A DNA stretch of 52,730 nt, from positions 1-52,730 of the forward strand of contig CAZCGJ010000002.1 of NCBI GenBank assembly GCA_964498295.1, given 5' to 3'. The translations under genes were made by a program, and so were the position numbers. A model generated the notes under the pieces. The model was not told the DNA's origin. It saw only the letters and a program-made list of their open reading frames with translations, and did no database searches. Source of the DNA: Candidatus Woesearchaeota archaeon (lineage in GTDB: Archaea > Nanobdellota > Nanobdellia > Pacearchaeales > GW2011-AR1). Positions 42,665 to 48,041 of this stretch are shown here, one piece after another; positions within the stretch are counted from its first letter, which is position 1; each line of letters begins with the position of its first letter.

Positions 42665-42976
42665 ATGCCTTCAATTTCTAAAGAAAAAAAAGAAAAAATA
42701 CAAGAACAAGTGATTTATTTTCTATTTACTATATTTCCAAAACAAGTTTTTACATCAGATATTGCAAAAGAGCTTGCTCGAGATGAGGAATTTGTAAAAA
42801 AACTGCTTTTAGAGCTCGAATCAAAAAACATTTTAGTAAAAATTGATAAAAACTCTCAAGGAATAAAGTATGAGAGACGTGCAAGATGGAGAATTTCTAA
42901 TGAGACTTACGAAATATATAGTAAGCATCAACAAAATCAGCAAAGTATCTCTCAAAAAGTAGAACAAAATATATAA
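42665..42976 (+). CDS. small winged-helix DNA-binding protein, hypothetical
   Basis: 103 aa. FTSDIAKELARDEEFVKKLLLELESKNILVKI...RWRIS fits a wHTH recognition helix plus wing. Confidence 0.5.
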   Translation: MPSISKEKKEKIQEQVIYFLFTIFPKQVFTSDIAKELARDEEFVKKLLLELESKNILVKIDKNSQGIKYERRARWRISNETYEIYSKHQQNQQSISQKVEQNI

Positions 42977-43048: not shown

Positions 43049-43717
43049 ATGGATCCTGTAAAAGAGGCATTTCAAAGGATAAAAGAGGAAATTCAGTCAC
43101 TTAGGTTAGAAATCTCTTCTCTTAATAATGAAATTGCCATTCTTAAAGCATCTTCTCAATACCAGCAGAAACCAACACAAAACAACCCCTTTACTTCCAC
43201 TCCAGCAGACAAACCGGCAGATTTCCCAACAGTTCCACAGGAAACAACGGGGTTAAAAGAACATATTAACTTATTTTCCACAGGAAACAAGGGGGTTCCA
43301 ACAGACACTTCAACACACAGGCAAACAAACCAACAAACCGACTTTTTAGGCGGAATAATGCATGAAAATAGCGAAAAACTCAATTTAGAGAACGTTCAGG
43401 AAACCCTAAATTCCCTCGATAATCTCAAAAAAGAGCTTCGACTGAAGTTCAAAAGACTTACTACTCAAGAAATGCTTGTTTTTTCTACAATTTATAGTTT
43501 AGAAACAAAAGGTATAGAAGAAATTACTTATAAAACACTCGCAAATAACCTCAATTTAAGCGAATCATCAATTAGAGATTATGTTATCAAACTTACTTCA
43601 AAAGGCGTCCCTATCGTCAAAAGAAGGGTAAATAACAAGCAAATTGCACTCCAGATCTCTCCAAATCTTCAAAAAATTGCATCCCTATCTACAATCATAA
43701 AGCTTCGCGAACTCTAA
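43049..43717 (+). CDS. coiled-coil plus C-terminal HTH protein, hypothetical regulator
   Basis: 222 aa. N-terminal heptads, a T/Q/P-rich linker (GNKGVPTDTSTHRQTNQQTD), and C-terminal LTTQEMLVFSTIY...LNLSESSIRDYVIKLTSKGVPI. Confidence 0.5.
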   Translation: MDPVKEAFQRIKEEIQSLRLEISSLNNEIAILKASSQYQQKPTQNNPFTSTPADKPADFPTVPQETTGLKEHINLFSTGNKGVPTDTSTHRQTNQQTDFLGGIMHENSEKLNLENVQETLNSLDNLKKELRLKFKRLTTQEMLVFSTIYSLETKGIEEITYKTLANNLNLSESSIRDYVIKLTSKGVPIVKRRVNNKQIALQISPNLQKIASLSTIIKLREL

Positions 43718-43993: not shown

Positions 43994-44590
43994 TTAAACC
44001 GTTTTTTTGTTTGATTTAACTCTCACTTTTTCCTTTTTGAGTATAATTTGCCTCATTTCTTCAGGAATATACACTCTTTTCTTCCCATTTGCCTCTTTTG
44101 ACTCTTCAATTAACCCTTCACATTTCTGTTTTATCATATTTATCTGACCTCTGATTGTACTTTTATCTTTTCCAAGAACTATTGCTAGATCTTCATAACT
44201 CAACTTGCTATTATCTGCATTTACTAATGCCCATACTATTCCTCTTTCCATAAGTGTTAAATTGTCTAAAATGCTTGTTTGAACAGCCGTTTGAACAGTA
44301 CTTTGAACATCTAAAACACTTGTTTGTTTTATCCCTACAGGCTGTTGTTGTTTGGAAATCTTAGTTCCAAACAGAGAAATAAAATCCTTTACATCATCAA
44401 TTTCATTTTGCAATACAAATATTTGTTGCTTTAGTTCAGCAATTTCTTCATTCTGTTGTTTATTATTGCCGTCGAAATGGCTTATCCATTGACCTACTTT
44501 GTTAAAATCTTCTTTAACTGCATCAAAAGATTTCTGAACTTCTTCTTTTTTTATTGTACTCTCTTCTCTTTTTTTAAAAAATCCGAACAT
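43994..44590 (-). CDS. coiled-coil plus C-terminal HTH protein, hypothetical regulator
   Basis: 198 aa with the same architecture as 43049..43717: N-terminal coiled coil, a Q/T-rich linker, and C-terminal LTLMERGIVWAL...LSYEDLAIVLGKDKSTIRGQINMIK. Confidence 0.5.
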   Translation of the reverse strand: MFGFFKKREESTIKKEEVQKSFDAVKEDFNKVGQWISHFDGNNKQQNEEIAELKQQIFVLQNEIDDVKDFISLFGTKISKQQQPVGIKQTSVLDVQSTVQTAVQTSILDNLTLMERGIVWALVNADNSKLSYEDLAIVLGKDKSTIRGQINMIKQKCEGLIEESKEANGKKRVYIPEEMRQIILKKEKVRVKSNKKTV

Positions 44591-45884: not shown

Positions 45885-46001
45885 TTCTGCTTTGAATCTT
45901 ATTATTTTATTTTTAATTTATATTATACTTATTTTTTCTTTACACTTTACTGATCCTTAAACGAAGATATTGGGGTTTTTGGAGATCTTTGAATAAAGTT
46001 G

Positions 46002-46056
46002 ACCTTAGTGCACAAAACCGCCGAAACCAAAAAGCAGGTTAAGCGGTCGAACCTAA
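46002..46056 (+). repeat. 55-nt direct repeat, copy 1
   Basis: ACCTTAGTGCACAAAACCGCCGAAACCAAAAAGCAGGTTAAGCGGTCGAACCTAA. Identical to copy 2 except at one position. Confidence 0.85.
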
Positions 46057-46107
46057 GTAACTCCCCTAAATATAAATCTTTAAAAAGAATTAATATATCC
46101 ACTAATA

Positions 46108-46494
46108 ATGACTTTAAGAGATTGTCTCGATAGTGAAGTAAGAAGAGGTCCATATCTCAATATTAAAACAGGCGAGCCTGTGAGAGTTTATAACTTAGAA
46201 GGTAACTTACATTATGCCGATCCATATCAAACTTTTGGCGAAAATGAAAGACCCCTATCTTTAACGGAGGAAGTTGCAAAAAATTTATTGAGGCTAGCTA
46301 ATTCTTCAAAAATTCAAAAACTTCTTTTTGACACAAAATACTCTGATGACTCTCGAGCTCCTAAATTAGATACTCTTCCTAAAAAAGATTTGGTCTTTAG
46401 AGCAGCACAAAGCCAACATAAGTGCACAGCCGCCATTATACCGGTTGATGCTCCGGAAATAATTAGGAGAGGGTTTAGAGTTCCTCATGTCTAA
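46108..46494 (+). CDS. hypothetical protein
   Basis: 128-aa ATG ORF. No family recognised. Contains a 30-nt partial copy of the flanking repeat at 46405-46434. Confidence 0.45.
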   Translation: MTLRDCLDSEVRRGPYLNIKTGEPVRVYNLEGNLHYADPYQTFGENERPLSLTEEVAKNLLRLANSSKIQKLLFDTKYSDDSRAPKLDTLPKKDLVFRAAQSQHKCTAAIIPVDAPEIIRRGFRVPHV

Positions 46495-46753
46495 TAAAAA
46501 TCCTCTATATTTTTGTAAATGGAAAGGTTGCAAAGTTTCTGGAGTTGTGGCAAGAAATTGTGATTATTGTAATTTGGATAATTATGTTTGTAGACATACT
46601 GGTGAATTATGTGTTGCAAGTAAAGGTTTAGAGGCGTTCGCACAATCTCTTACTAAAAGTTTGGAAGATGGCGAGCCAGGATATCTCGGATTATTTCCTA
46701 GTGCAACAATAGACCCTAATTCTCACTTGCTTTCAACACCATACACTTTATAG
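46487..46753 (+). CDS. hypothetical Cys-rich protein
   Basis: 88 aa. Overlaps the previous ORF by 8 nt. Six Cys in the first 42 residues (CKWKGC...CDYC...C...C). Confidence 0.45.
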   Translation: MSNKNPLYFCKWKGCKVSGVVARNCDYCNLDNYVCRHTGELCVASKGLEAFAQSLTKSLEDGEPGYLGLFPSATIDPNSHLLSTPYTL

Positions 46754-46796
46754 ACAAAAATATATCTTAAATTAAATAGGCTTTCGCACAAAGCCA

Positions 46797-46851
46797 ACCT
46801 AAGTGCACAAAACCGCCGAAACCAAAAAGCAGGTTAAGCGGTCGAACCTAA
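46797..46851 (+). repeat. 55-nt direct repeat, copy 2
   Basis: ACCTAAGTGCACAAAACCGCCGAAACCAAAAAGCAGGTTAAGCGGTCGAACCTAA. Matches copy 1 at 54 of 55 positions. Confidence 0.85.
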
Positions 46852-47176
46852 AAACTGTTGAGAGATATGATTTTTATTTCCAAAACATCAAAAAACAGTA
46901 AAAAATCACCAAAAATAGCCTAAAATTCCCTTTATGGTTCGTACAAGATACATTGTTACAACCCTATTTTTACTCAAAAAATACAGAAAAAACTTGTTTT
47001 TTGGTCAAATTTGAAAAATCACATATTAATCCTCAGCCAAAAAATAAAAATGCCTAAAATCGCCAGGACTCTTTAATTTATAATTTGTGCACATTGATTA
47101 CCTAAGTGAACAACTCTCTAAATAAATTTATTTAATCTTTGAACTAAACAAACCAAAGTGCACAGAGAATTATTCT

Positions 47177-48007: not shown

Positions 48008-48041
48008 CCAAAATCTATTTAAACCCTGGTTCGCACAATCT
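48008..48041 (+). promoter_or_regulatory. duplicated 34-nt leader/promoter element, copy 2
   Basis: CCAAAATCTATTTAAACCCTGGTTCGCACAATCT matches copy 1 at 33 of 34 positions and ends 3 nt before the ATG at 48045. Confidence 0.45.

Follow-up and report, generated by a model that had tools for sequence, protein, structure and literature searches.

A 55-nt direct repeat marks module borders of a mosaic gene array next to a dif-like site in a Pacearchaeales archaeon

The 52,730-nt stretch of DNA analysed here (the window, from contig CAZCGJ010000002.1 of a Candidatus Woesearchaeota archaeon) contains a near-perfect 55-nt direct repeat that brackets two small overlapping genes, A and B, upstream of a dif-like site and of a gene for the tyrosine recombinase XerA. 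We found that this repeat forms the joints at the module borders of a mosaic gene array close to dif. Judged by comparison with related genomes, its 55-nt copies are a long form, specific to the genus, of a conserved 23-bp motif, an imperfect palindrome. The copies of this motif share one orientation and keep their position in the locus while varying in number, protein tails have been swapped at them, and the motif stays the same beside different types of Xer. The interpretation that we favour, tentatively, is that the motif would be a joint read by a protein and a box upstream of promoters, at which gene modules would recombine by ordinary recombination. The repeat is very probably not the attL/attR pair of a self-contained excisable element, one of the possibilities raised in a preliminary description of the sequence.

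The repeat and the motif at its core

Recomputation of the repeat bore out the preliminary description. Its two long copies (copies 1 and 2 in Table 1) agree at 54 of 55 positions, the sole mismatch being that of ACCTTAG versus ACCTAAG, and with a period of 795 nt they bracket the overlapping pair of open reading frames (ORFs) spanning 46108..46753. A core of 49 nt is exact (46008-46056 and 46803-46851), and no such match arose in 100 dinucleotide shuffles; under looser criteria the repeat extends over 69 nt (45988-46056 and 46783-46851) at 90% identity. The third, partial copy reported inside the first ORF was also recovered, with 23 of 24 positions matching between 46405-46428 and 46786-46809, as were the five occurrences of GTGCAC, between 46008 and 47163. 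The 55-mer begins and ends with ACCTAAG-like words, of the form ACC[T/A][T/A]AG, which means that the homology of the two copies begins and stops inside that word. This word is found five times on the plus strand in 46002-47152, as against seven times in the remaining 51.5 kb of the window.

A search of the whole assembly (0.8 Mb in 71 contigs, 53% complete) returned three copies of the repeat in all, every one of them in this array; the repeat is therefore not a dispersed one, and the objection that it might be fails. An exact 46-mer taken from it had no match in a collection of 185,579 species.

Comparison with relatives resolved the 55-mer into a 23-bp site and an extension. The site is an imperfect palindrome with the consensus TKCACWAAGCYAACCTWAGTGCA, in which eight to nine of the 11 position pairs are symmetric; the ideal form of the palindrome reads TGCACTAAG-N5-CTTAGTGCA, and a perfect 8-7-8 version occurs in one genus (G097). 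The most conserved stretch of all is the asymmetric centre of the site, AACC. The extension (AAAACCGCCGAAAC...GTCGARYC) is restricted to the genus of the window. In copy 1 the core is followed by this genus-specific extension, AAAACCGCCGAAACC..GCGGTCGAACCTAAG, and the ATG of gene A lies 94 nt past the core.

The extension also holds the hairpin, ACCGC..GCGGT, which bears on the proposal of two copies of a small structured RNA gene or of a transcription terminator. The hairpin does fold in this genome, at -15 kcal/mol (plus strand) and -23.7 kcal/mol (minus strand), and the z-score of about -2 for copy 1 (-1.9, and -1.1 for copy 2) would be in keeping with such a role. However, RNAalifold run on 16 copies from the genus of the window returned 0 pairs and no covariation, from which it follows that the fold is not the conserved feature; conservation is found in the palindrome that precedes the hairpin. 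Moreover, no Rfam family matched the repeat, even at E values up to 10, and no T-tract follows the hairpin on the gene strand, so that we consider a structured RNA or a terminator most improbable. A tRNA or tmRNA fragment serving as an attachment site was also sought, and ARAGORN detected nothing near the repeat.

The motif has a wide distribution among the relatives. With up to two mismatches it was present in 50 of the 151 genus-representative genomes of the family, while a reversed-pattern control was present in one of the 151. Each genome carries one to five copies, always on one contig and one strand and within about 1.5 kb. When up to four mismatches were accepted, 121 matches were obtained in 49 loci, and all those counted were co-oriented within their locus; on the opposite strand, a single weak match was seen in each of five of the 49 loci. 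The gene order around the motif is shared across the family: a 103-aa winged helix-turn-helix (wHTH) protein, a 222-aa coiled-coil HTH protein (HTH222), a divergent gene for a 198-aa protein (p198), the motif cluster, the dif-like site and xerA, with two small membrane-protein genes and a ribbon-helix-helix gene sometimes present between p198 and the cluster. The array thus lies downstream of two coiled-coil HTH genes, amid small fast-evolving genes. Eleven of 12 motif-negative genomes have p198, and several of them hold diverged copies of the motif at the same place, one being a perfect 8-7-8 palindrome. In the 185,579-species collection, all 40 exact matches listed for an 18-mer of the motif came from records titled Pacearchaeota, Woesearchaeota, Nanoarchaeota or 'archaeon'.

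Of the 99 motif copies considered family-wide, 33 fall inside ORFs, 21 of them read in one frame and 12 in another; this use of two frames implies conservation at the level of DNA and not of peptide. Copies from one genome tend to have variant letters in common, such as GAGCA in all four copies of G121 and CCAAAG in all five of G147. Likewise, the two long copies in the window are identical over 49 nt while orthologous copies differ between species, which points to recent exchange or gene conversion.

Turnover of modules and protein tails at the joints

The repeat marks the module borders of a variable gene array that adjoins a recombinase gene. The number of modules varies among related genomes: where the window has a single A-B module, the sister species G003 carries two, with three long repeats, between the same flanks. 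In metagenome contigs from the genus there are one or two modules, or a tandem pair of B genes. Between the window and G003, identity is 82% over the stretch that runs from the membrane-protein genes to 35 nt past copy 1; gene A (46092-46486) has no nucleotide match at all in G003 and has been replaced outright, and B together with the stretch from the repeat to dif is again collinear, at 69-75% identity.

Protein tails have also been swapped, with the junction at the motif. In G003 an N-terminal domain of the A1 type is followed by the motif, read as QSQPKCT, and by a tail running FPFPH..GGDNP; in G007 the same A1-type domain (49% identical) continues through the motif in the other open frame into a B-type tail (..YKKIAHIADHLK). 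The B proteins in turn have a common Cys/His domain that extends to FAQS, the in-frame reading of the left arm of the motif, and then diverge into at least four unrelated tails. A short conserved repeat within a coding sequence therefore joins a constant protein part to alternative tails, as in a shufflon. At the nucleotide level, copy 2 has a left part (TTCGCACAAAGCCAACCTAAG) of the intragenic type and a right part equal to the extension of copy 1; by this comparison copy 2 is a chimera, with its junction in or beyond the right arm. It is also the end of the array, no array gene following it.

In the interpretation that we favour, the co-oriented motif copies would act as joints, and recombination between them would duplicate, delete and re-assort gene modules and protein tails. 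The mode would most likely be ordinary homologous recombination or gene conversion acting on the conserved 20-50 nt. All array repeats being direct, an exchange between them would delete or insert and not invert.

These results also bear on the suggestion that the repeat represents attL/attR or cassette-boundary sites. The second part of this suggestion stands, as the repeat does lie at module borders, between which one or two modules are found, A has been replaced and tails have been exchanged. The first part, a 795-bp mobile element inserted by an integrase that duplicated its attachment site, would agree with near-perfect direct repeats that bracket exactly two genes, with the tyrosine recombinase gene 2.9 kb away and with the serine recombinase genes found directly after a motif copy in three genera (see below). 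Nevertheless, we regard it as very improbable: the A-B unit encodes neither a recombinase nor a replication gene, a third copy lies inside gene A, all the species examined in the genus have homologous A-B units at this position, and the B family was found nowhere else (11 of 11 metagenome loci). Furthermore, no empty site was seen in seven genomes of the genus and 11 metagenome loci, and neither an excision joint nor a circle was found in the assembled contigs of four lake metagenome runs that hold the sequence. The contigs of those four runs break at the 49-nt repeat, as is expected of a de Bruijn graph.

Among the contigs from these lake samples, some agree with the window as far as 46777, shortly before copy 2, and some as far as 46956, within the right arm of dif; beyond these points they continue into other sequence and are co-occurring relatives or structural variants.

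Spacing to gene starts, dif and the recombinases

A second line of evidence concerns the distance between the motif and the genes that follow it. The next plus-strand ATG lies 40-120 nt after the motif for 45% of the copies, compared with 14% of random positions; where the copy is the first of its array, the ATG follows after 72-86 nt in some fifteen genera. At 28-31 nt past the motif there is a second box, AAAAATTTnC, which precedes a stretch resembling a B recognition element (BRE) and TATA box about 25 nt before a leaderless start. These spacings are those of a promoter that has a protein-binding site upstream of it, and the dyad with eight to nine of 11 symmetric pairs and the constant HTH neighbours would also fit an operator-promoter module. 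We therefore propose that the sequence of the motif would be retained through its reading by a protein. Since in most genera the site stands at a fixed distance upstream of a gene start, the likeliest reader would be a neighbouring HTH protein; p198, HTH222 and the 103-aa wHTH protein are the constant upstream neighbours of the motif cluster and hence the candidates.

Several observations weigh against this interpretation. The motif has about 19 informative positions and a conserved asymmetric AACC, which suits the core of a recombinase site better than a typical operator bound by a symmetric dimer. ORFs contain one third of the copies, and an operator role leaves the intragenic copy unexplained; in the genus of the window A and B overlap, so that B needs no promoter of its own and the intragenic copy is not required to serve it as a promoter element. 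A recombinase gene, whether for XerA, for an HNH protein with a second type of Xer or for a serine recombinase, is present near the array in most loci that reach far enough. The left arm of several motif copies, among them copy 2 of the window, is the same as the left arm of dif, TTCGCACAA. Lastly, an exact 20-mer of the motif was encountered on two tailed-virus contigs that lack an integrase.

The tyrosine recombinase gene was found where the preliminary description had placed it. Its product scores 231.5 bits on the NCBIfam equivalog XerA_Arch (NF040815, cut-off 220) and 217.2 bits on the integron integrase model TIGR02249, below the cut-off of 265 and in two separate stretches; it is the only PF00589 gene of the assembly. 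The dif-like site, which the preliminary description had not included, has a pattern that is unique in the assembly except for one match within a coding sequence. An equivalog above its cut-off and a single 11-6-11 site, in an assembly that is 53% complete, identify an archaeal XerA/dif module. Across the genus, the left arm, the spacer and TTGT of dif are conserved. Among the relatives, perfectly inverted arms were found in G007, G147 and G029, the site of G007 reading TTCGCACAA-gataca-TTGTGCGAA. By the pattern of bacteria and of Thermococcales, dif is expected near the terminus of the chromosome.

In about 25 loci dif follows the last motif copy at a distance of 26-365 nt and in a fixed orientation. 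Of 37 genomes, 28 carry a Xer match downstream, on the contig and strand of the motif, and in 25 of the 28 it is no more than 8 kb away. This proximity raises the alternative that the motif might be an accessory or architectural site of dimer resolution or of the terminus, bound by the coiled-coil HTH proteins and either controlling XerA at dif or organising the terminus, in the manner of cer/psi accessory sequences or of matS/MatP, the small genes being incidental. The family-wide synteny of the block formed by the HTH genes, the motif, dif and xerA supports this idea, as does the behaviour of dif within the genus, where it forms a single conserved unit with the terminal repeat and with the spacer between them, itself conserved and about 130 nt long; besides, archaea lack FtsK, and conserved flanks of dif are on record in Thermococcales (PMC2958812). 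Yet the distance from motif to dif varies widely among genera, genes lie between the copies, which are spaced 300-900 nt apart, whereas the known accessory regions of cer/psi are compact, and the motif is kept in G004, where neither xerA nor dif was found over the 17 kb examined downstream of the array. The constant distance to gene starts would also go unexplained, and we deem this alternative improbable.

The relation of the motif to XerA could be judged from genomes with other recombinases. In G005, G030 and G159 the Xer protein encoded at the same position is only 40-44% identical, and the motif is unchanged in all three. An HNH gene adjoins the divergent Xer gene as an operon in G030 (L018) and G159 (L033). 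A different dif-like site, TTCGCCTAA-tgtaga-TTACACGAA, accompanies the divergent Xer in G005 (L069, reverse strand) and G030 (L018, 6855); none was found for it in G159 (L033). A joint that stays the same where Xer is 40% identical and dif is of another kind speaks against dependence on XerA: the site is not tied to the specificity of this enzyme, and the 23-bp motif is probably not a XerA substrate. In three genera a serine recombinase gene begins on a motif copy or right after it (L012, 8380-9748; L037, 1087-1758; L051, 1786-2598), and the serine recombinase gene that comes after the array of G004 is split, its second ORF carrying an HNH domain.

Other identities of the motif were considered and set aside. 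That it is dif itself was ruled out by the canonical 11-6-11 site present downstream in most loci, and the possibility of a hybrid between the left arm of dif and the arm of an element, left by XerA-driven integration, was weakened by the persistence of the motif beside another type of Xer and dif. A crossover site of a serine recombinase is unlikely given the odd centre of the dyad. The presence of dif at the locus and the shared orientation of all copies led us to drop the reading as an origin-recognition box.

A rather unlikely but still plausible alternative to ordinary recombination is a dedicated platform for site-specific recombination, like an integron or a shufflon but built from other parts, with the 23-bp core as its site and A-B as a captured cassette; a recombinase encoded close by would use the core to insert mini-gene modules, cut them out and re-join them, at times in frame. 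Many properties of the array are compatible with this idea. The copies are co-oriented, of high information content and with a conserved asymmetric centre inside an 8-7-8 or 9-5-9 dyad; the window copies are identical over 49 nt while orthologous copies differ between species; the number of modules varies and tails are swapped exactly at the site. A recombinase gene is close by in most loci, the left arm of the motif resembles an arm of dif, and the site occurs on the two integrase-less virus contigs. The ORFs traverse the site and stop shortly beyond it, and many integron cassette ORFs likewise traverse attC and end shortly after. Against this, the same site accompanies three unrelated or divergent types of recombinase and two types of dif, the homology between the window and G003 breaks about 85 nt past the core, at the start codon of gene A, and the junction of the copy 2 chimera is not at the edge of the spacer. 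In addition, B cassettes were seen only at this locus, no circular contigs were found and no joint was present in the assembled contigs of the four runs, and the fixed promoter geometry would be needless for promoterless cassettes. A site-specific system would use one fixed crossover position within AACCTAAG, whereas homologous recombination would leave scattered breakpoints or none.

A bolder version of this idea, which we view as unlikely, is that Pacearchaeota-type archaea possess a dedicated mini-gene shuffling platform beside dif, with joints, in-frame re-joining and integrase-less viruses that integrate at the same joint. Here a recombinase, or gene conversion triggered by an HNH nuclease, would act on the 23-bp joints and mix N-terminal domains and tails. 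If the joints were true recombination sites, they would constitute a gene-capture and protein-diversification system in DPANN archaea, located at the chromosome terminus and made of parts other than IntI and attC, and this would bear on the origin of integron-like platforms from Xer/dif neighbourhoods. On a conservative reading, our analysis locates dif, and it describes a conserved leader word of XerA and a lineage-specific cis element with candidate HTH readers in a large uncultured lineage.

Known systems and other features of the locus

We found no description of this array in the searchable literature. The nearest reports are those on archaeal integrons and clusters of attC sites lacking an integron integrase (CALINs; PMC9668308), on archaeal XerA/dif (PMC2958812, PMC8371274) and on bacterial integrative mobile elements exploiting Xer (IMEX).

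Integrons (IntI/attI/attC, including the archaeal integrons and CALINs of Ghaly et al. 2022, PMC9668308) share with the array co-oriented small genes of unknown function, a repeated site, ORFs that run into this site and an adjoining tyrosine recombinase gene. They differ in that the recombinase here is a XerA equivalog without the IntI-specific domain, encoded downstream in the same orientation and beyond dif, and in that there is no intI-attI at the head of the array, the recombinase gene lying 2.9 kb downstream of the last copy. The site of the array is conserved in sequence and not in fold and has no R''/R' boxes; inspection of the repeat revealed no bracketing RYYYAAC/GTTRRRY pair, the boxes of attC. 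Unlike integron cassettes, those of the array are confined to one locus, and promoter-like boxes come after the sites.

The dif modules of IMEX (CTX-phi, TLC-phi, the gonococcal island, Acinetobacter pdif) are similar in that modules without a recombinase accumulate on one side of dif, an intact dif stands at the end of the row and some joints have the left arm of dif. However, the joints of the array are not 11-6-11 sites; they share at most the left arm TTCGCACAA, with a different spacer and right arm, the true dif is 85 nt beyond the last joint, and the joint is unchanged beside a different Xer/dif pair. The shufflon of R64 (sfx, Rci) also combines a short conserved repeat in a coding sequence, a constant part with alternative tails and a nearby tyrosine recombinase gene, but the repeats of the array are direct and not inverted, they are read in two frames and no dedicated recombinase was identified.

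With the cdiA-CT/cdiI modules of contact-dependent inhibition (CDI) and the orphan tips of Rhs proteins, the array has in common a conserved nucleotide stretch at the border of a domain and a variable tail, tandem partial modules and an exchange that is explained by homologous recombination at the conserved stretch. In contrast to those systems, the tails in the array measure only 20-40 aa, there is no toxin/immunity signature and many copies are non-coding and lie in promoter regions. Archaeal operator-promoter modules of the TrmB or Lrp type also place a dyad site at a set distance ahead of BRE/TATA-like boxes and leaderless starts, next to HTH genes of the regulator type; the site of the array differs from them in its much higher information, its conserved asymmetric centre, the one third of copies that are intragenic and the location of copies at recombination junctions.

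Table 1. Features of the array and its surroundings in the window
Feature	Position	Strand	Remarks
103-aa wHTH protein	42665..42976		
HTH222	43049..43717		coiled-coil HTH
p198	43994..44590	-	coiled-coil and C-terminal HTH
Repeat copy 1, long form	46002..46056	+	core 23-mer 45990-46012, CCTTAG form
Gene A, 128 aa	46108..46494	+	no family match
Short motif copy within gene A	46404..46428	+	in-frame AQSQHKCT; 60 nt upstream of gene B ATG
Gene B, 88 aa	46487..46753	+	Cys/His-rich; start overlaps stop of A (ATGTCTAA)
Repeat copy 2, long form	46797..46851	+	core 23-mer 46785-46807
dif-like site	46936-46963	+	GGTTCGTACAA-GATACA-TTGTTACAACC, 11-6-11, 8/11 symmetric; 85 nt past copy 2
Two degenerate motif copies past dif	47089-47112, 47141-47164	+	
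dif-arm word TTCGCACAA	47564..47572	+	6 nt upstream of cytidylyltransferase ATG
dif-arm word, second copy	48030-48038		precedes 167-aa gene
xerA, 277 aa	49738..50571	+	2.9 kb downstream of last copy, beyond dif and four other genes

The two tailed-virus contigs, which carry terminase, portal and capsid genes, contain the exact 20-mer CTAAGCTAACCTAAGTGCAC in non-coding DNA, and neither of them (L059, L063) encodes a tyrosine or serine recombinase. In L059, of 12.2 kb, the motif is 200 nt from one end and is followed after 53 nt by a dif-like word, TTCGTGCAAggctta; L063, of 33.5 kb, has direct terminal repeats and the motif at 1578. Both may be viruses of these archaea.

The arm word of dif recurs at gene starts. 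In many genera it is found, as TTCG[C/T]ACAA, about 17 nt before the start of xerA (for example at L030 5967, L048 5441 and L052 7337), and in the window it precedes the cytidylyltransferase gene and the 167-aa gene (Table 1), which in this genus are inserted genes with a common duplicated leader of 46 nt. Autoregulation by XerA or a shared leader could explain these occurrences. On contig 38 of G088 (L065 and L066), two inverted dif-like sites (1922 and 6212) are 4.3 kb apart and the array is separated from xerA by 35 kb, an arrangement that suggests an inversion or a large insertion at dif.

With regard to the products of the array genes, PADLOC, Pfam and NCBIfam assigned the A and B proteins to no family, and the AlphaFold model of protein B (predicted local distance difference test, pLDDT, of 52) was too poor for a fold search. 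Protein B has five invariant residues, C10, C25, C35, H37 and C42, and its sequence suggests a small zinc-binding domain.

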